From Tubiluchus corallicola (lineage: Eukaryota > Animalia > Priapulida): a stretch of 64,000 nt of DNA. Position 1 is the first letter of the stretch, and each line of letters begins with the position of its first letter. The notes beneath the pieces were generated by a model that was not told the origin of the DNA, did no database searches, and saw only the letters and a list, made by a program, of their open reading frames with translations. This document shows, piece by piece, positions 7,600 to 48,229 of this stretch. The position numbers were made by a program, and so were the translations under genes. Location of the stretch: positions 1 through 64,000 of the forward strand of contig JAQGDQ010000925.1 in assembly GCA_030141605.1 (NCBI GenBank). The letters run 5' to 3'.

Positions 7600-8660
7600 A
7601 ATAAATAGCTTAACTGGGCAATTCAAGCCCAAACATGACGCAGTTCTGCAAGGTAAAGCATGTTGGTTACGGCAACCCGTGTCAGGACTACAATATCGAT
7701 GGAAATTTACTTATCAACCTAAGAGAAGAAATTGACCTGGGCGTTAAAATAAGTGACGATCTTAAGCCAGCATTAAATATAGCAGAAAAATTAAAGAAGA
7801 CAGCTCAACTACTTGGAATATTAAAAAGGAACTTTAATAGTGGTCAGAACAGTAATTCTACCCTTGTACAAACCCGCAATAAGACCAATTAAAGAGTACA
7901 CATCATCAGTCTAATATACAAAGAAGAGCCACAAAACTCTGTACTTCAATAAAAACACCTAGCTTGCTGCAAGAAATTGCAGCAACTGCAACAAAAGACA
8001 CTGGCAACAAGCAGAGTTTGGTGTGACTTTTGCTGCAAACATACAAATTTTTAGTTTAGTTCAATTTAGCTTAGTTTATTTTCAAAATGCCACAGATACA
8101 ATAATGTTATATATTTGACAAAGAAGCTGTTACTACCAACGCACAACAAAAAAGACAAAATTTCAATTCACCATATATTGATATATCCGCTCAGACCAAG
8201 AAGGTAGGCTTGTACCGGATTGAGCAGAAGGCAAAATGGAAAGAGAAGATGTAAAAGCTGCAAGATAAAAAAGCAAAAAAATGAAATACAAGGGTGGTAG
8301 TAAGGGTAAGGAAATGACAATGAGGAGTGAATGAGATGATAGTGAAAATGAAGATTAGATTCGCAGGAGAATTTAGCGAGAAAAGATCAATCGCTGAGTC
8401 ACTGCAAAATTTAAACGGCACAGACATTAACACAAATGTAACAACATGTTTCAAATGAAGACGCAGGCAAGAAGAGGCCACGACAGGCAGTTATATAAAC
8501 ATCGTACAAGACTGGATGTACGTAAAAACTTCTACTCCCAGCGTGTAATTAATCACTGGAACATCCTGCTACAAGCCACATTAGACGCTGCAAACATGAT
8601 TCAATTTAAAAACAAAATAGAATCGTATATCGAACAGTTGCAATACGCAAATCTAGAATA
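7600..8660 (+). mobile_element. Decayed CR1-clade LINE ORF2 3' fragments, interrupted by an insertion at ~8040-8390
   Basis: EEIDLGVKISDDLKP...LLGILKRNF (7635-7892) and RRGHDRQLYKHRTRLDVRKNFYSQRVINHWN (8446-8694) are typical CR1 C-terminal motifs (DLGV, TRGH, RxxFFSxRVVxxWN). Confidence 0.8.
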
Positions 8661-8914
8661 CTTACGTAACAGTTTGCAGTGCTGCCACATTTAATGTGCA
8701 TCAATAGCCCTTTTTACTGGGCTTTTGCACTTAACAGACCACCCAAGAAGTTTGAAACTCAAAGAAACTACGAAGTTGACAGTATGGGAGGTCTTTCCAG
8801 GTAAATTCAGTTAGAAAATACCAAAAATGGCAGAACGATCAGTACTTAGACGTCATATACAAAAGCGTTTGAGGTCGGTAGAAGGTGGCAGCAGGTAAAT
8901 AACAATAATTCGTA

Positions 8915-9088
8915 ATAATGATAGTGATGATGATGACGTCGATGAGGATGATATTGATGGTGATGTGCTGATGACGATGATGACGATGATAGTGATGATG
9001 ATGGTGGTGGCAACAACAACAACAATAATAATAATAATAAAAAAACAACAACAACAACAATTTCGACGACCACGACGACAATGATGAC

Positions 9089-9160
<72 letters not shown>

Positions 9161-9180
9161 AACAATAGCAATAATAATGA
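8915..9180. repeat. Compound trinucleotide microsatellite (GAT/CAA/TAA/GAC)
   Basis: Directly visible. It explains the low-complexity poly-His/Ser/Ile ORFs at 8839-9184. Confidence 0.95.
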
Positions 9181-9193
9181 ACATTTTCCAAAC

Positions 9194-9346
9194 CTTTTCC
9201 TCTGGCTAGTACTATTTCGCAGAATTCACCACGAGTTCTTTTAGGGCAGAGACACATGAATACTCCTTTTTTCCTGGGTGATATGACACCGTCGTCTATA
9301 CACGTGCCGCCATTTTTACAAGGTTCTTCCAGAGTACTACAAACAC
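9194..9346 (-). CDS. Exon 2 of small secreted EGF/collagen-like protein: single EGF-like domain
   Basis: Acceptor ttcctgtag at 9347. Translation GVCSTLEEPCKNGGTCIDDGVISPRKKGVFMCLCPKRTRGEFCEIVLARGK has the six-Cys EGF pattern C-x6-C-x5-C-x15-C-x-C-x8-C. It is a 153-nt phase 1-1 exon with donor AAG/gtttgg at 9193. Confidence 0.85.
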
Positions 9347-10337
9347 CTACAGGAACGTAATGCAAATTCTTAATGGCGAGAATAAGACAATTAATGAAAA
9401 AAATCTCACAATTAAGAAACAAAGAGAAAACACAACGTCTCAAGTCACAAGAAAAAGCGGAAAAATGACAAAACATAACTAAGGACTAACTCTCTTTTTT
9501 TATATTATTGACGCATTAAAAATATCACATTTACAAACAGTATAATCACTTAGGAAAGAAAATATTCATGTTCTTTTCCACGTAGTTTTTATTTGCTGCG
9601 TGTATGTATCTTTTTTACATGACTGTACATGTTATGTTTTAGGTGTCAATAAAAAAACTTCCAAATGCAATTCAAGTCAATTTGATATTTTCTTCAAAAC
9701 GAACCATAGCAATGAATGCATACTTATATAAAAAGAAAAACATTAAAACGTGTAACCGATCCACAGCACGACTAAGATAATTCTTGTAAGGGTGTCATTT
9801 GCATGATTAAATATTAATTACAGTGAGATCCGGCATGAATATTTGACAAACGGCACATTATGCAAATGTTGAGGCTTGGTTTAGAATACAGATCATCTAT
9901 GCAAAATATGGCTCCAGCATTGTACAACTATAAGCCTATGTATAATATCAGAAAGCCCTAGGATATTATTGAATTGTTCTTGGGTTTCAGGTGTTACCAC
10001 AGGCCAACGACAGAGTTACGAATGGTAACATAAAAGTGAGGCAGAATATTCTCTTGAACGAATGATGCTCTCGTATTATAAGCGCAGTGAAAAAGCGTCC
10101 AAACACCATATTATACTCTTTTAAGATGTTAAAACCTCAAGGACTTTAAATTCCTTCTATCCTGTTGCAGTGCGCTCTATCAACAGTAAATTTCAGTAAA
10201 TTTGCGATAATGTGGAGTGTATATAAAGTGAATTTACTTTGATTATCACTAAACTGAATTTATTTGTGTTAGTTTTCTTTTGTTAAAGTACTTAAAACCA
10301 CATAAATTTCGTTATATTATAACAAAATAACAATAAA

Positions 10338-18830: not shown

Positions 18831-21104
18831 GGACAAAGAGGACAAAGAGGAAGAGACAGCAAGAGAAAGATACAGTTGATCCATTTTTAAATTCTTAAAA
18901 TAACGAAAAGCAATTGTAGCAATTGTAGATAAGGTAACTGGGCCCGTTATCTCGTTATTTTCATAGATTTAAAATTGGTGACAGTATAATATTTTCTCAA
19001 GTAAACATCTAGTTCGCCTTATTCTTTCATTGTATATTTGCACAAGCTTTTGCAGATTTACTGTAGAATAATTATGTGCTTCGACATAGCTTAGAGAAAA
19101 AGTCCACGTTCGTTCTGCAACTTCATATATGCGTATATTCGATGTGCTATTTTTGAAGTCTTCTTTTGGTCCGGTCTGTTAACTGAAAAGGGGGGATTGA
19201 TTGGACACAACTGTCAAACTTTCAGAAATGATTCTTTAGGCGATTCTAACAGCGTTTTGGGCATTTTTACAAAATTCGCTTTTTGGCCCGCTGTCCCGGG
19301 ACACTTAAAATTCAAGAAATGGTCCTACACTTTGGAGGTTTATAATTCCAAAAACGCTCGCAGAAGCACACTTGGCTATTATTAAGGACGAATAGGATGT
19401 GTACTTTCATTTGGTGGTACGATTAGCGACCTTGGAACAGACAAAGTTGCCAAATTACGTCATCAGTACCCTCAATCTATTTTACAAATTCAATAATCTG
19501 GTCTGTTGGCCGAAAAAAGAGAACTGACTGGAGTGATTTGGCGTTACTTTTATATCATACAATAGCTATACGAATTTGTGAAGAAAGACCTCGTGTTGTC
19601 TGATTTTATATACTGCAGCTACATAAGATAATAATACTGTCATCATATACCACCTCGAGAGGCGTCTGGTATCTTCTTCTCTTGGCAATTAGTTGCGCCT
19701 GCAGAAACTGTACGAGTATGCAGCTCTAGCACAGCTGCAACGCATTTACTCGAGGTGATAATCCATGGACGATAGATTAGTCAACTGCCTTAGCTACACC
19801 ACATGTATTGCCTACTGTAAATATTTCACTTAATTATGCGTATAGGAAACTGTTTAGCTGCAACTATCAGCAGGCCAAGCATAGGATGTTCGTGTAATGT
19901 ATCAGGCCAAATAATCGTCTACTAACATCATTGTACATGTAGTGTATCAATTTTATTTGCGAATAAAATGCATAATAACAATTATTATTATTACAGGAAA
20001 ATGCCACTGTCTTATATATTTATACAATAAGCTTTTTCACAGTTCCATTGATTGATGACTATCGTGAAAGGTCAAAGGTTAACTGTACCAGACAAGCATT
20101 TGTGTACACTTGACAGCCTCACCGCTCATGCTATTTTAATAGTAACAGCTAGCTAGAAACTTTTCTATTTCATTTTTTCTTGTTCCCAAGCAAGCTCCTA
20201 CTAGTAAATCCTTCTACACACAGACTAATGCATAAATAAGTAAAGTCCATATAAAACAACTGAACTGATGGCAAACGGCGTTGCTTTACCGACACGTCAC
20301 GTGACACTTGTAGTTAAGATGCATTGCTGTGATACACTTAATCTTTGACCTGCAGCAACTGCACGTGTGCACAACAAAACTGTGAAAAGGCTTATTTTTT
20401 AAGTATTCACGACTATGAATGTATTACCATTATCTCTACAATTTACCCCGTCATATCTAAAACTTACAACAAAGTTTTCATCCGAACACATTAAAAACTA
20501 TTATTGTGGTCGTTGTGGATGGAGATTTGTTAAGTAAAAACTTCAAGTAATGACCAAAATATCAGTTTATACTTGTGCTGTATTAAACACAAACCCACAA
20601 ATCGTAAGCATTTTCTTAGCACATAAAAGACATAATTTGCAGACTGACTTATAGAACAGCGTTTTGCCACTTAGTCACAATATTAGATTGTCATTCCTCA
20701 CACCCAGCTTGGGATCTGTGACCCTTGCCTGTAAAGCCACAACTGTGAATTGTCTTCATCGAAGGTCATTCTTACATAAGTACTACATGGATCGTTGTCA
20801 CATCGTTAATACACAAATTCTTAATGATGCATGATAAACCTTGCATATTTACCATAAGATGTGCCACAGCCATGCAACTGTGTAATGACACCAAATCCTA
20901 TCTTTTGACAACTGCACAGTCTATCAAACTGCTACAGTTAATACTGATAATCAATAATGTACGAACATTCTCATAGTTTCTGTACTCATAACTGAATACA
21001 GGTCTGCGTACTGTTAATAATTACTTAACGAGGGCGAATAATTTGTGGCTACATTTGGCGCGTAGTAAATCGGTTATAATGTCTCTTATTTCTCTCATTT
21101 ATAG

Positions 21105-21661
21105 GTGCAGCAATAGCCAGATCTTCCTGTAAAGTCGACCAGTGCAGCCAACAGTACGAAATAGGGATGCAGGGGGGCCGCGTGGAAAGAGGTCCCAACC
21201 TCGATTACTGCCGTGTGTTACAGGCATACGCTGAATGCATTCGGGGTACTGGACGCAAGTGTCGTGGAAACATCCAGTACCACACCACATCCACTCTTGT
21301 GGAGGCGTGGACGCTACAGTACAACTGCTCATACATTGTTCTTAATGCTCATATATTTGAATCAACAATGAGATCTCATAGACCTCGAGACAGAGAACAG
21401 CCCATCTGTGATTATAAACATAGAAAACATAGAAACCGACATTCCCATGGTAAAGACCATTTGAGAAATGCGAGTACTTCTGTGAATAAAGGATACGTGT
21501 ACTGTGGGCTGTTTGGCGACCCTCACTTGCGGACATTCAGTGGTGAATATCAGACATGTAGGGTCAAAGGGGCATGGCCCCTCCTGAACAACAAACATCT
21601 GGCTATACAGGTAACCAATGAGGAGGTGATTCCTGGATCCAGTGCTACAGCTACAACAAAG
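21105..21661 (+). CDS. RGM: RGM exon 2: N-terminal Cys-rich RGM domain and start of the vWD-like domain
   Basis: CKVDQC...YCRVLQAYAECIRGTGRKCRGNIQYH...YNCS and CGLFGDPHLRTF...QTCRVKGAWPLLNNKHLAIQVTN...SSATATTK are diagnostic RGM motifs. The GDPH autocleavage site is at 21515-21526. Acceptor tttatag at 21104, donor AAG/gtaatc at 21662. Confidence 0.95.
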
Positions 21662-22215
21662 GTAATCATTGATACTGAAAACGTTTAATTTGGAAGATGT
21701 TCAAGAGTCAGTGTCATGCCAATCCCAACTGAACTGTGTAAACTTTAATCTTTCATTAAAGGAACCTAATTCAAAATATTTTCATTGGCTATGTTAGCTG
21801 CTAAATGTTCATTGACATTGTTTAATGGGGACTTCTAAATTGTACTAGAATGACTTTTAAATATCTGTTATATATAAAACGGCAACTTTGGCATACCATT
21901 GTGGTTTTAAAAGTTGAGCAGCGACAAGTCTGTTGAGTGTTTGCATTGGTGGTTGCTGATGGACCTTGAAATAGTTCTCCCTCAGTAGGCTAAGTTGCAT
22001 CCAGTGTCAAATGAGTTAGGTATTTATAAAGAGAAATGATTATAAAAACATCTAGAGTTTAAAAAGAGAACTGTAATGAAAGATTACATACAATAATAAG
22101 AATGGCAAGTAAAAATAACAGAGAGACGTGGAGAGAAGGAAAGAGCAAGAGAGCATAAAGGAGGGAGAGAGAAATTGAGGGGGACTGAGGAGAAAAAGGC
22201 AAAAAGAGAGGGGGG

Positions 22216-28687: not shown

Positions 28688-29124
28688 GGGATTCTTTTGT
28701 AAAGATTGCACCATGCTTATTTAATTAACTAACGTAACGATGACCATTACCCCTTAATCTCCCCTTTCTTTACATCAAGTAATTTATATATTAGTATTGT
28801 TTTTTTGGGAGATGGTATTGCTACATTGTTCTTGCGCCATGAGTTAAGTACAAAGTTCGCATTTAGCATGGCAAATGTTTTGTGTAAGTGGCATGATGCT
28901 TGGTGTTAGGCTCATTGCATTACCATGTTCATTCTAATCCTAGTAATTCCTCCCCTCCTACTGATGAATTGTAAACATCCTCTCCCCACAAGTTTCTTCA
29001 CAGTGGTGTTGATGGCACGAAGCAGAAACTTGATACAGCTGTAACTGACAGTGTCCCCCTGTGTGTATTCACATCTGCACAAACATGGGCTCCAGCAATT
29101 AACGAACTCCACTTATTTTTTCAG

Positions 29125-29772
29125 CTTACGGTGATCGTCAAGCGACACAACGTGTGCGCACAGGAAAAAACATACCACGCTTCTATGGGAAGCATCCCAG
29201 GGGAATTCGTGGACGGGAGCACGGGAAGTGGACCAGAGGGGAGTGTTACCATTCTGTCCAAAACTCTGAACAAACATGTGATTATTAAATTGAGATATGC
29301 AGGAGTGACCCTGATCGTACGACAAGTTCATGGTTACTTGACATTTGCAATGCGCATGCCCGAAGCGTTGTTGGACAAGCCCCAGAGAGGGCATTTGGAA
29401 CTTTGCACAAAGGGTTGCCCAGAGAGTGAAAGACTACTGTATCACAAACTGCCGATTGCTGAGCAGTCAAGCAACTCGGCAATAACAATGGGTCGTGTAG
29501 AAGCTGAAAAAGAGTGTCATAGTTTTAATTTAACTGGGTTTTATTTTGACTCTTGCGTTTTTGACTTGATGGCAACGGGTCAGACGAACTTTGCCGCAGC
29601 GGCACATGTTGCTCGAAAAGACATGATGAAGCTCAACTCTGGGAAGGAATTAAACATAAATGTGATTCAAAATGACAGTCCAGTCTCCTGTTCAAGCCCT
29701 GTCAGACCGTCCTACATTGTTCAATACCTCATCATTAGTTTCAGCTTGTTAATTTTCCATTGGGCAAGATGA
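29125..29772 (+). CDS. RGM: RGM exon 3: C-terminal domain and GPI-anchor signal
   Basis: Acceptor ttttttcag at 29124 gives phase 0 ATATTK/LTVIVK. Motifs include LIVRQVHGYLTFAMRMPE, LELCTKGCPESE and FYFDSCVFDLMATG. Hydrophobic C-terminus YIVQYLIISFSLLIFHWAR follows a Ser-rich spacer. Total CDS is 1287 nt, 428 aa. Confidence 0.95.
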   Translation, partial: LTVIVKRHNVCAQEKTYHASMGSIPGEFVDGSTGSGPEGSVTILSKTLNKHVIIKLRYAGVTLIVRQVHGYLTFAMRMPEALLDKPQRGHLELCTKGCPESERLLYHKLPIAEQSSNSAITMGRVEAEKECHSFNLTGFYFDSCVFDLMATGQTNFAAAAHVARKDMMKLNSGKELNINVIQNDSPVSCSSPVRPSYIVQYLIISFSLLIFHWAR

Positions 29773-38299: not shown

Positions 38300-39245
38300 T
38301 ATTTGTCGATTAAGGATTTAAACTTTACTGTGGTTGGTGCGGCTAATCACCATGACAGACAGATTATTCATTTCATTCACAGCTCTCACAGAAAATGAAT
38401 ATTTACGAATGTCAAGATATAACTGCTCTTTAAACAGTTTTAAACTATGTCCTCTAGTTTTAGAATCAACAACTAAATTAGAGAATTTTTCGGGCAACAT
38501 GTTTTCTTTTCTAGTTAATATTTTATAAACTTGAATGAGATCTCAACGGGGTCTTCTTAATTCAAGCGTGGTCAAACTACAATATTTCAATCTTTCCCAA
38601 TATGTCACATTTTTACAACATAATATTATTCTTGTAGCACGCCTTTGTACACCTTCCATAAGCAATATATCTTTCTGATAATGGGGATTACAAAGCTGTA
38701 CAAAGTATTTTAGATGAGCTCTAACCAAACCAATGTATAATTTCAATATAATTTCTTTATTTCCAGAAACGATGTGCCGCTTTATCATCCCGAAAATCTT
38801 GTTTCCTTTCTTAACAGAGGATACACATTGCTGGGAAAATGTCAAGTCTGATGCTATTATCGCACCAAGATCATTTTTACTATTTGTACTTTGAAGAGTT
38901 GATCCATTCATAACATAATGACTTTTAAGATTCCCAAAACCGCAATGCATTACCTCATGTTTATCAACATTAAATAACATTTGCCAGTCATTACTCCATC
39001 TACATATTTGTTCAATATCATGCTGTAAAACTAATGAATTCGTTGCAGAGTTAATTGGATTATACAATTTTGTATCATCTGCAAATTTTAAAATGTGAGT
39101 GGAAATATCATTATCTATACACACCATGGGCTTTAATATTTTTAAGCAGTCGATGAGGCACTTTATCAAAGTCCTTGGCAAAATCAAAATAAACGATATC
39201 AACAAAACTTCCTTGATTAAGCATAGAAGTGACATCATCGAAAAA
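38300..39245 (-). mobile_element. CR1-clade LINE ORF2 pseudo-copy (RT and C-terminus), frameshifted and internally deleted
   Basis: Motifs VDIVYFDFAKDFDKVPH, LKFADDTKLY, WSNDWQMLFNVDK, LYIGLVRAHLKY, GVQRRATR, LTTLELRR and TRGHSLKL...RKYSFSVRAVN. The GVPQGSVLGP motif is missing (deleted). Confidence 0.92.
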
Positions 39246-40573
39246 ACTCATCAGATTGGTCAAGCAAGAATATTGGAGAGTAGCTAAGGATCGAATCACT
39301 TGGCAGCAGAAGGTAAGTAGTGTCATACCCCTCGACGAATAAACACATAATAATTATGGTGATTATCGAATCACCAATAAAAAGCAGTCTTGCAAATGTT
39401 AAGTATATTACTTGATTTTATTCTGCAATAAAAACACTTACTGGGTTTAAAAATTGTGCTCAGAAATCGCAGCAAAATTGTGCATGATGTTTTTAATGGT
39501 TTCAATGATAAAGAACGTATATGCATTTTGAAGTGCTGAATTATTCGAATCTATAAGTTTAGTTTTGAATCGTACGCTCACCCTTAATAACAACTGAGTG
39601 CATATGTAATAGTTTCTAGCTAAAGAAGTTACCAATACGCTAGTAAATCTTTAAAAAAATTACAAAGCTCAGGCGATCAATGATCCGTTTTCATAATCCA
39701 CTTTCATATATATAATATTTTTTGACATAAGCTAGCCAATATGACAAATGTCATAGTTAAAAAGCCAATTATTTTGAAAATACTAATAACAGTTAGTTGC
39801 TTAATTTACCTAATTACGCATGTTTTAGTTCTGAATAATTTGCGTGGTAGAGCTTTGATTTCTTTGTTTATCTTTTATCAAAAATATATGAAACGATTTT
39901 ATGAAAAATTGCAAAATGCATTAATGTCCAGAAACATTTTATCTGGTACCAACCAGTTTTTTAAATAAAACGATTTAAAACCATCCTATCTACACATGCT
40001 TCAATTTCAAATAAAGGTCTCCATGATCCCCCATCCATAATTTTATAAGTCATTTCTTATCTACTAAAAACAAATGACACCAATCACACCATACAATGTA
40101 AGTATATGGTTAGGAAAAAAACTTTTGTGACATCTATGCTCTAGATTTCTTTTTATCACATTATAAAATATTTTGCCCGTTAAACTCTGTTAAGCACTTT
40201 AACTAGTAAAGCAATTGCAACAGTTATTTTCGTTCCAAACTCACAAGTGAATCACAAGATTGTCAATGTGCTCGATTAGTGACTTCTGGTGATGAATCCG
40301 TCTGCTTCGTCACCACGAAGTTATTTGTTCCGTCTCTGTTTTTCACTTTGCTTTACTGTGATACAATACTATAAGATGGGAGTGAAGTCCTCCCAAAATT
40401 TCGTTGTGTATTAGAGCAACTGGAAATGGTAAGTTCTTTGAACTTCTTTTAGTAAATTGGCAGTGCTTTATTATTCTAGAGCTTATGTCTTTTCGAAAGA
40501 TTATTTGGCCCTAGAGATAAAATTCATGATTTTATTTTCATCAAAAATTTTCACGAAGTACTGTATCGGAACG

Positions 40574-43742: not shown

Positions 43743-43748
43743 TTTATT
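43743..43748 (-). terminator. Candidate polyadenylation signal for the 618-aa gene
   Basis: AATAAA on the minus strand ~440 nt past the stop codon. Confidence 0.45.
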
Positions 43749-44190: not shown

Positions 44191-46047
44191 TCAATTAATG
44201 CTTCTCTTCAAAGCTTCCATAACTCCGAGGAGAATTGCTTCAGAAGTTTCCTTGAATGATTTCTCTGTCACTCCAAATTCAGCTGTATATTGTATTGGTG
44301 TATCGCCAACAGTCACGTCAAAGGTAGCCGGATAAATGTTGTTGCGAAGTTCGCGCATTCTGTCTACATCAATCTTGTTGAACGATACCTGCAGCTTGTT
44401 AGGGTTCAAATATGTAACCCACTTATTTTGATCCGTGACATTCTTGTATGCATCCTGCGCTTTAACAAGTTCAGGACAGTAATGGTTTATGCTAACAGAA
44501 ATTATTTCTTTCTCGCAAGGACAATATTTCATGTAGAAGAGGCATGCAACATCTCTAGTAGCTTCATTTTCTACTAGGTGACACTCTGGTTCTTGTTGTG
44601 GAATTTGTGTAATCTCTGGAGCTGAATAGATTCGTGGATGGATGGCAGATCGTTTCAGGCGTCCACGTGCTCCAAACCAAGCAATGTTTCCGGGTCCTCG
44701 TCTATCAGGAAGTCTCTCGATTTTAACAGTCCATTCATATGCTTTGTTGTAAGCCTCCTGGAACTTGCTTTCGGACATTTTCTTCATTTTTGCTGCTGCA
44801 TGTTTGTCATTTGCCATCAAGTATGCTCTAGTATCTTCTCTGGTGGGAATGTTCGTTTCTAAATCAAGCCGTGACAGTGATCTCTTTTTTCGTTGGTGCG
44901 GGAACAATCTGTCAAATAGAGGAAACTCTCCCTTGTCTCCGCTGTGTGATTCCTGAGAAAAACTGTTTTTAATTCTGCCAAATAGCCCGGCAAAAGAGTT
45001 TTCAACTTTGTCAATAAGTTCATGCATCATTTTATTGGCTTCTGTCATTGCTTCTTCTACTTTTGACTCCATATCACCTAGAAAGCCATTAGTTGCATTT
45101 TTAACAATGTGAATTACAGTGCCATTTTCAAATGTCTTCTTGAATTCTGCCTCGAAAAAACTGGTAAAATTGTCCTTGAAGAAAATCTTCACCTCCATAA
45201 AAATGTCTCCAGCATGATCAATTGTTTCGTTTAGAAATTCACTCATATCGTCATCCATAAACGTTGGCATGGTATTTAAAAAGAAATCTCTAATATTATT
45301 GACAGGAGCACTTTCAGCTGCTTCATCGAAAAAATCTGCTAAGTCTTCGCTGGCGAAATTAGGAATGTCATCTCGAAAAAACTTAACAAAATGGTTTTCG
45401 AAAAAGTCTGGAACGTGATGTCCAAAGAAATCATGAAAATCATTCCTGAACCAATTTGTTGCTTCATCAAAGAAAACACCCATAGAGTGATCAATGTTGT
45501 CTCCAAAGCGTTGTCCGCAAGAATTCATGTGTCGCTTACAAGCAAACTCTGCAATGTTAGTACATGTACTCGTCCACAATATTTCCATGGGACATTCACG
45601 TCTATAATATCTACAAAGGTTTTCCAAGTCCCTAGAAGAAGTTACTCCTCTGAAATCATCACAGGTTGGTTCAGAGAGAGGAAGTCGATCCAGTTCACAC
45701 TTGGCAGTTTTTTGACTGCAAAGTTGTCGTGCACAGGGTAAGCAGTCCTTTAACCAGCGCTCTTCGTTTCTTCCCCGTATCTGTTCCGTGGCGTAATGTG
45801 TTACATTCTTGCAGATTCTCCCCTGCTCCTCCATGTTCTCTCTGGCTTCAATCATTTGCCTTTTGGCAGCTAAATACATGAGCTTTAATAGCTTTGTTCC
45901 TGCTCGAGAAAGTCCCGATACCATCTCTTGGGGGAGTAAATCGTTGCTGTCCACTGCTGCAACTGAATCATCTGATTTAGGCATTGCATTTGTCACCTGG
46001 CCTAGCAATGAAATTGCCACAAAAAGAAAGATCAATCTGATCTGCAT
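44191..46047 (-). CDS. 618-aa secreted, furin-processed, disulfide-linked protein; clusterin (apolipoprotein J)-like
   Basis: Long uninterrupted ORF with signal peptide MQIRLIFLFVAISLLGQVTNA. Cys clusters at C79/102/105/110/117 and C489/502/509/511/524. RKKR at 386-389 and RLKR at 463-466. Several NxT/S sequons. The CDS itself is well supported; the clusterin relationship is by-eye. Confidence 0.9.
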   Translation of the reverse strand: MQIRLIFLFVAISLLGQVTNAMPKSDDSVAAVDSNDLLPQEMVSGLSRAGTKLLKLMYLAAKRQMIEARENMEEQGRICKNVTHYATEQIRGRNEERWLKDCLPCARQLCSQKTAKCELDRLPLSEPTCDDFRGVTSSRDLENLCRYYRRECPMEILWTSTCTNIAEFACKRHMNSCGQRFGDNIDHSMGVFFDEATNWFRNDFHDFFGHHVPDFFENHFVKFFRDDIPNFASEDLADFFDEAAESAPVNNIRDFFLNTMPTFMDDDMSEFLNETIDHAGDIFMEVKIFFKDNFTSFFEAEFKKTFENGTVIHIVKNATNGFLGDMESKVEEAMTEANKMMHELIDKVENSFAGLFGRIKNSFSQESHSGDKGEFPLFDRLFPHQRKKRSLSRLDLETNIPTREDTRAYLMANDKHAAAKMKKMSESKFQEAYNKAYEWTVKIERLPDRRGPGNIAWFGARGRLKRSAIHPRIYSAPEITQIPQQEPECHLVENEATRDVACLFYMKYCPCEKEIISVSINHYCPELVKAQDAYKNVTDQNKWVTYLNPNKLQVSFNKIDVDRMRELRNNIYPATFDVTVGDTPIQYTAEFGVTEKSFKETSEAILLGVMEALKRSIN

Positions 46048-46096: not shown

Positions 46097-48229
46097 GGAA
46101 AATATGTATGTGTATATGTATCTCAAAAATTCCTATTACACTTTGTTGCACTTTCTGGAATTACGTACGCATCAGAGTCATTGCCAGCAAAATATCAACT
46201 GAAACTGATCAGCAGAATAAGCTTGTTTTCTCCTCTACATTGTTGACAGATCATCTGATAAAGATCCTTTCGAGTTCATATGCCCCAATGGAAAGTTTCC
46301 ATGCATCCTAGTTGAACCTGCAATATACACAATAAATAAATTATAATCAATGATGATCATTGACATCAGCTTATTTAATGCATATGCAAATGTTTAACCC
46401 TATACTGGGGTAGGCGGGTCCCTAACACACTTGTCACGGACATTTAACAGCTTTCTGTATCCCAACCAAAAATTTTCATGCATCCTAGTTGAAATAAGCA
46501 GTTGTACACATTAAAGGAAAACCAAATGATTGGTTAGATTCACTCTCATTTTAATTTACTGTCCAAAATATACATTTTCTTGCCTATAAAAGTTCGCTAT
46601 TATTTCTTATATTTGAATAATTCGTTTGGAAAATTATCGCTTACGACACAAACTAACCACAGTTTGTGCAATGATGGGCATCTTCCCTGTCCGTCAAGCA
46701 CGTCTGCATAAGCGAACACTACTCTAAGATGCTGATGTGATGTCACAGAAATGGGCTCTACGTCACACTGACATCACAGGTAAACACTGCAATTCGTGAT
46801 CATGCTTATCACAGTACCACACCTATTTGTCGGCCACACAAATGTGACAAAACGGCACCATTGCCCGCCTTAGTGCATTCGCTAAACCTCGAGTAACTTT
46901 GAAAGTTGAACAAAATTTAACTATCCAAAGTAATTATTTTTTAATCTAAGCTTTGATTTAAAAAAGGTATAGTAGTTTTCAGTATTTTAGAGCATACATT
47001 ATGTTAAACTAATGTCTACGCAATTGTCCGGTTTTCCTTTAATTTACACACTGGTCAAACTATTTAATGCAGAGCAAATTATCCCAATAAAGATGCAAAT
47101 TAAGGAGAGTGGGGGCATACTACATGGTGCGTTCTTTATTCATTGTCTGTGGTGAAGTGATGACGTTTAACCCCCAGTTTTAATGGGCGACAAAAATTAT
47201 GTCAGTAATTTATAGAAGCGTGTGCCATGTTTCAAATTCGTATCATATTCGCAATCTTTAATCTTAAAGTTATACATATACTAGACCCACTCACATTGTG
47301 ATAACCCATTTTCACATTTTGCTTCTAGCAAAGGGCGGGGTGTGTCTGCTGTTTTTGACAGTTTTTTTTGTGTAGCGTAGTAGGTAATACTAGGCAGGGC
47401 TTAATTTTCCCATTTGGTTGGCTAATCATTTTCTCTGAAGTTTGAAAAGTGGGTAGTTTTTCCAAGTCTTAGTGTGAAATAGCCGGTGTAGTTGAGCTTG
47501 TCACTATTACACATTTGTTTATGTTCGTTTGAATTTAAATTGGCTGTGATGTGTGCTAACTAGGCTTGCAAATTAAACAAAAATTTGTGGCAGAACAAGG
47601 CCATCATGCACTGCATACGGAGCAGTAACAGAGAGGTGGAAAACTTGACATGACTATGCGTAAGTAGCATTATTATGTTGGTGACAATAATAAATAATGT
47701 GGCATGGTTGACCATTCACAGAGTAGCTAAGTATTGAAACTTCATACATTTAGAGTAATTCAAAGTTCGGCAGGATAGAATGGTTCCAAGTTTAGCCAGC
47801 ATCTTTCACGTGAGGGCTCTGTATTTTCTTAGCGGTCTTTCCAAAAGCAATTAATACGATTTTTTAACACCAAATTTCTTAAAAAAGAGAAACTGATGAC
47901 ATGAAAAATGAAGCAATTTGGGATGATAGTTATCAAGTTGTAACATTTTGCCGGGTTATGATGCAGAAAAATGTGCCAAAGTTTACATTAGAAGCAAGTG
48001 AGTGCCTTACAAAGTTGAAATTTCACAGTCTGGTATTACAATACATTAGCTTTTAACTGTGGATGTTACAAGTTTATAGCTTAGGTGTTCTTAAGTTATG
48101 GCTTTTGTATGTTAAAAAATTAAATGTTGGAACAGTGTTAACTAATATCAATTGAAAACAGCCACGTTTGGCCTATAAGGCACTCAGTACTGGCAGAAAA
48201 ATGTTGTTAAGGAGAAATGGGACTTGTTC

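Follow-up and report, generated by a model that had tools for sequence, protein, structure and literature searches.

The question raised by this locus is what kind of protein is encoded by the longest of 13 ATG-initiated frames of at least 100 amino acids in a 64,000-nucleotide stretch (hereafter the window) of contig JAQGDQ010000925.1 from the priapulid Tubiluchus corallicola. The open reading frame (ORF), which occupies positions 44191..46047 of the minus strand and has 618 codons, encodes a cysteine-rich protein, termed P0001, that a first-pass annotation had read as an invertebrate homologue of clusterin, an Alzheimer risk protein. By family tests P0001 is not a clusterin, although the architecture proposed for it did receive moderate support. 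The kinship that can be demonstrated is with PRSS56, a vertebrate eye-size serine protease mutated in nanophthalmos, and was missed in the annotation along with a six-cysteine module. Comparisons at the sequence level firmly place P0001 as a protease-free version of the non-catalytic PRSS56 frame.

Kinship with PRSS56

When P0001 alone was run exhaustively with phmmer against 1.84 billion proteins, 10 matches were obtained. One was a relative at 90% identity, three were uncharacterised proteins of Priapulus, four were PRSS56 proteins of vertebrates, and the other two (P0009 and P0011) were repeat proteins, dropped because their similarity reflected repeat composition. The similarity to PRSS56 fell outside the trypsin domain. 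Word-based searching, whether with P0001 or a five-sequence profile, recovered near relatives only. We then used 125 PRSS56 proteins (120 of 185 being listed), which yielded 96 complete pre-protease and 116 post-protease parts. The post-protease hidden Markov model (HMM) scored P0001 at 53.6 bits (best of 1000 shuffles, 7.0) in a colinear match over residues 125-403 and 521-614, and the pre-protease HMM at 26.4 bits (best shuffle, 11.5). Using hhalign, the C-terminus of P0001 aligned with PRSS56 over 94 gapless columns (98.7%, E = 3e-16), and the N-terminal part, which matched at 97.9%, aligned with 11 conserved scaffold cysteines. The Pfam search of P0001 gave no trypsin (PF00089) match, nor did tblastn find a protease across the window beyond P0001. 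Profile A3, searched against the PDB, was uninformative, the best 60 of 585 matches being trypsins without exception.

The two proteins share a five-cysteine N-terminal helix, the six-cysteine module, a Phe-rich helix, one or more basic sites, a last cysteine, a return helix, and an alpha/beta domain, in the same order. In P0001, these elements follow a predicted signal peptide (residues 1-21, 45985..46047; all features lie on the minus strand), with cleavage after A21 placed by eye and a hydropathy (Kyte-Doolittle) peak of 1.75 at residue 5; no membrane segment was found past residue 30 (no 19-mer above 1.2). The long N-terminal helix (residues 38-121, 45685..45936) was predicted by AlphaFold2 (AF2) with a predicted local distance difference test (pLDDT) score of 84-95 over residues 40-121 and aligned by hhalign to the PRSS56 N-terminus. 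Its cysteines (79, 102, 105, 110, and 117) were all present in 96% of the 96 PRSS56 N-terminal parts, but 20 more residues separate Cys79 from Cys102 in P0001. The helical six-cysteine module (EPxC...CxxY...C...C...C...C; residues 125-177, 45517..45675; pLDDT 80-92; module HMM, 25.7 bits) occurs twice in PRSS56, flanking the protease domain (copy 1 versus copy 2, ~39 bits), whereas P0001 has one full copy (HMM match, 126-179). Half-module matches at residues 100-120 and 494-512 were weak (the latter ranked 23 of 2001 against shuffles), hinting only faintly that residues 485-511 might be half of a second module. Non-mammalian PRSS56 proteins have 18 conserved scaffold cysteines (11 + 6 + 1), with the module duplicated around the protease.

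Further along, a Phe-rich acidic helical region followed by an amphipathic helix (residues 186-366, 44950..45492), recognised by composition and spacing, is colinear with the PRSS56 post-protease region but far longer, and contains 30 Phe, 37 D/E, and 14 K/R in 181 residues. FF pairs recur every 8 residues, Phe/Trp spacing peaks at 8 and 16, and pLDDT values were mostly 52-68; Phe makes up 16% of residues 186-389 versus 3% elsewhere. The furin-type motif RKKR (386-389, 44881..44892), whose upstream 30-mer is rich in Phe/His/Pro/Arg, has an R-x-K/R-R counterpart at the equivalent position in 101 of 116 PRSS56 C-terminal parts, and a Phe-rich segment just before the basic site was common to P0001, the Priapulus protein P0004, and the PRSS56 protein P0010 (4 Phe per 30-mer each). 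For a second furin-type motif, RLKR (463-466, 44650..44661), a positional counterpart with a loose motif was present in 105 of 115. The second five-cysteine cluster (residues 489-524, 44476..44583) was complete in the Priapulus proteins P0003 and P0004, but PRSS56 has only Cys524, so that Cys489, 502, 509, and 511 are extra in P0001. Finally, the return helix, three-stranded sheet, and final helix (residues 525-618, 44194..44475; pLDDT 90-97) aligned by hhalign with PRSS56 and correspond to the part of that protein described only as its 'C-terminal conserved domain', without a solved structure (PMC13238036). None of the PRSS56 scaffold parts has a Pfam family.

Much of what the first-pass annotation had described in P0001 was borne out, namely the single open frame, the hydrophobic N-terminus, the ten quoted cysteines, the Phe-rich centre, both basic sites, and the C-terminus. 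Its ten-cysteine pattern captured the two five-cysteine clusters but omitted residues 129, 145, 152, 162, 170, and 177, which bring the total to 16. Cys79 and Cys524 were kept in all groups and lie on helices predicted to pair, making 79-524 the safest candidate disulfide. Since P0001 and the Priapulus proteins retain both clusters, a full five-rung ladder is plausible in these proteins, while PRSS56 keeps the five N-terminal cysteines but only the last C-terminal one, so its wiring must differ from that of P0001.

The closest named relative, P0003 (Priapulus caudatus LOC106806992; 38% identity, E = 2e-97), shares the 16 cysteines and FF octads of P0001 and grouped with it in a C-terminal tree (97/93). 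It lacks most of the linker (residues 390-466) and has no clean R-x-K/R-R site. The tree (18 rows) was unrooted, had long branches, and did not contain clusterin, and is compatible with either gain or loss of the protease. P0004/P0021 (P. caudatus LOC106818513) has both five-cysteine clusters and the end domain, but not the six-cysteine module or Phe-rich block of P0001. A His/Cys-rich stretch between its signal peptide and an RQRR motif (residues 26-51), not a feature of P0001 and absent from the partial, uncharacterised paralogue P0007 (P. caudatus LOC106821662), is possibly a released metal-binding propeptide. These Priapulus proteins are unnamed and have no Pfam family. No further invertebrate members were found, the sole exhaustive search having used a single sequence, so that absence elsewhere is not implied.

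Predicted clusterin-type architecture and possible function

Attempts to link P0001 to clusterin directly by sequence, in Pfam, the PDB, and profile searches, failed. The Pfam Clusterin family (PF01093) went unmatched by P0001 and by the 16 members of alignment A5 (E up to 10), as well as by 10 relatives (E up to 1), and the human clusterin chain in the PDB was not matched at E up to 10 by phmmer or protease-free profile searches. Moreover, cysteine spacings in P0001 (x22-x2-x4-x6 over 79-117 and x12-x6-x1-x12 over 489-524) equal only 3 of the 8 gaps of the clusterin pattern quoted in the first-pass annotation (x10-x2-x4-x7 and x9-x6-x2-x7).

Structural comparison was more favourable to the claim. 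Clusterin was the top match of P0004, the minimal Priapulus relative, in two programs and in both crystal forms (7zet and 7zeu), aligning end to end and in order across the end domain, helix pair, and Cys-rich head, and was the only end-to-end match of P0001 among the best 50 from VIA-align. Based on the models, the frame that P0001 shares with PRSS56 likely has a clusterin-type fold, with a predicted discontinuous architecture in which the first helix, three-stranded sheet, and last helix form an end domain, joined by antiparallel helices to a disulfide head; residues 525-618 appear to match the layout of the clusterin alpha/beta roll (AB) domain (PMC12527946, section 6). The two five-cysteine clusters, the signal peptide, N-glycan sequons (six in P0001), the central furin-type site, and its Phe/His/Arg-rich flank are shared with human clusterin, the latter four at the level of motifs. 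Differences are that P0001 is ~170 residues longer, has six extra cysteines and two basic sites, and carries a long Phe-rich helical block where clusterin has short disordered tails. Of the two links, that to PRSS56 is more solid and more surprising. No usable match to P0001 or P0004 was found in the ESM Atlas, and other candidates were too weak to retain: a galactose-binding lectin (3wmp, E = 0.3), a cobalamin adenosyltransferase on an amphipathic helix (E = 0.004-0.02), and ApoA-I and ApoE.

Tentatively, and with slightly less than even confidence, we read P0001 as a protease-free homologue of the PRSS56 frame that has a clusterin-type fold and serves as a secreted two-chain carrier for lipid or exposed hydrophobic surfaces. 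Its starting points, from sequence, are an N-terminus of signal type, the PRSS56 homology that runs through the middle as well as both ends, and the lack of a trypsin domain. Helix 38-121 and residues 489-618 would zip into a rod, with an alpha/beta end domain, antiparallel helix pair, and disulfide-rich head as in clusterin; the five-cysteine clusters would lock the halves, most likely through 79-524, and the six-cysteine module would form a second small disulfide domain. Furin-type cuts after residues 389 and 466 may then yield two disulfide-linked chains and a free Phe/His/Arg-rich tail. In human clusterin, chaperone, receptor, and lipid functions reside in such tails (PMC12527946, sections 7 and 11). 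By analogy, this tail, together with the Phe-rich acidic helices spanning 180 residues (186-366, the candidate lipid- or client-binding part), could interact in body fluid with lipid or with unfolded clients, a carrier or chaperone role that we would put just short of an even chance. In vertebrate PRSS56, this frame has a trypsin domain between two module copies.

We consider it probable that clusterin/CLUL1, the PRSS56 non-catalytic frame, and these invertebrate proteins belong to one superfamily older than the protostome-deuterostome split, a disulfide-clamped, furin-cut rod with interchangeable cargo: hydrophobic tails in clusterin, the Phe-rich helical block in P0001, and the trypsin domain in PRSS56. 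Clusterin has been described as a vertebrate, 'phylogenetically younger' chaperone (PMC12527946). If the superfamily is real, both clusterin and PRSS56 originated before vertebrates and gain a structural model, one family connects two medically important proteins, and the invertebrate members offer natural variants for learning what in the clusterin frame confers chaperone activity. On this view, PRSS56 would amount to a clusterin-type fold into which a protease has been inserted, its C-terminus completing a domain with the N-terminus, and this would be the reason that C-terminal truncations of this matrix-located protease abolish function with the catalytic domain intact (PMC5864079).

Fold and ancestry could be shared in the absence of any chaperone or lipid role, since a shared fold by itself shows no function, and the main rival, which we regard as somewhat unlikely, is that P0001 has a structural, storage, or matrix function, or acts as a scaffold for receptor binding, with Phe-rich octads that self-assemble. 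The strict 8-residue FF period suits repeating assembly, P0004 does without the Phe-rich block, and the loss of function in the PRSS56 truncations (PMC5864079) points to a role of the frame in targeting or folding. Against this, the Phe-rich segments before the basic site in P0001, P0004, and P0010 share their composition with the parts of clusterin that carry its function.

Convergence, in which P0001 is a PRSS56 relative and a disulfide-bearing long helical hairpin with a small alpha/beta cap arose twice, seems less likely still, given that the clusterin match of P0004 led in both programs and spans the discontinuous end domain, helix pair, and Cys-rich head together, with a furin-type site at the matching place. 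Cuts at both furin-type sites would also free a basic 77-residue peptide (390-466; 17 K/R versus 10 D/E), and the two clean R-x-K-R sites flanking it led us to consider that P0001 is mainly a precursor, in which the rod chaperones and then releases this segment, for example as a defence peptide. However, no other long part of the protein is conserved so little (95 of 111 identical to P0012), and P0003 and P0004 lack the segment almost entirely, making this very improbable. The carrier reading of P0001 is the one that we prefer.

The gene and its surroundings

P0001 is a real gene. Among 32 differences within its ORF, taken from 40 of the 107 rows listed for a related run's contigs, 23 fell at third codon positions (p = 1e-5), a bias which indicates coding constraint and, with the relative at 90% identity, places the frame beyond chance. 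Contigs of run X1 were colinear with the ORF in three pieces, and contigs of run X2 (RNA by our guess) were ~92-94% alike over parts of it; the latter showed no splice joint across the introns of the RGM gene in the window. The 1857-base coding sequence has no intron amid intron- and repeat-rich animal DNA, for which retroposition or intron loss is possible. Nearby on the minus strand are AATAAA signals at 43743 and 43353, and an acceptor-like TTTTCCAG lies ~50 bases 5' of the ATG. A high-copy interspersed repeat (46473-47076), for which contig depth in run X1 sums to thousands, lies 430 bases 5' of the start codon. Searches within the window revealed no paralogue of P0001.

Elsewhere in the window, a repulsive guidance molecule (RGM) gene has two plus-strand exons (21080-21688 and ~29113-29772) with Pfam RGM_N and RGM_C, and resembles human RGMB only distantly (88.5 bits over 153 residues). 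It ends with a hydrophobic tail of glycosylphosphatidylinositol type and reads RGN at the place where vertebrate RGMs, presumably, carry RGD. Beside simple repeats on the minus strand, ~9250-9400 has six cysteines with EGF-like spacing (CSTLEEPCKNGGTC...CLC...C) and probably represents an exon from a gene with EGF domains; no EGF was detected by Pfam in the whole surrounding ORF (8853-9485). Two further stretches resemble ends of long interspersed nuclear element (LINE) reverse transcriptases, at 38543-39247 on the minus strand (RVT_1, E = 0.013) and, by eye, at 7614-7892 on the plus strand.
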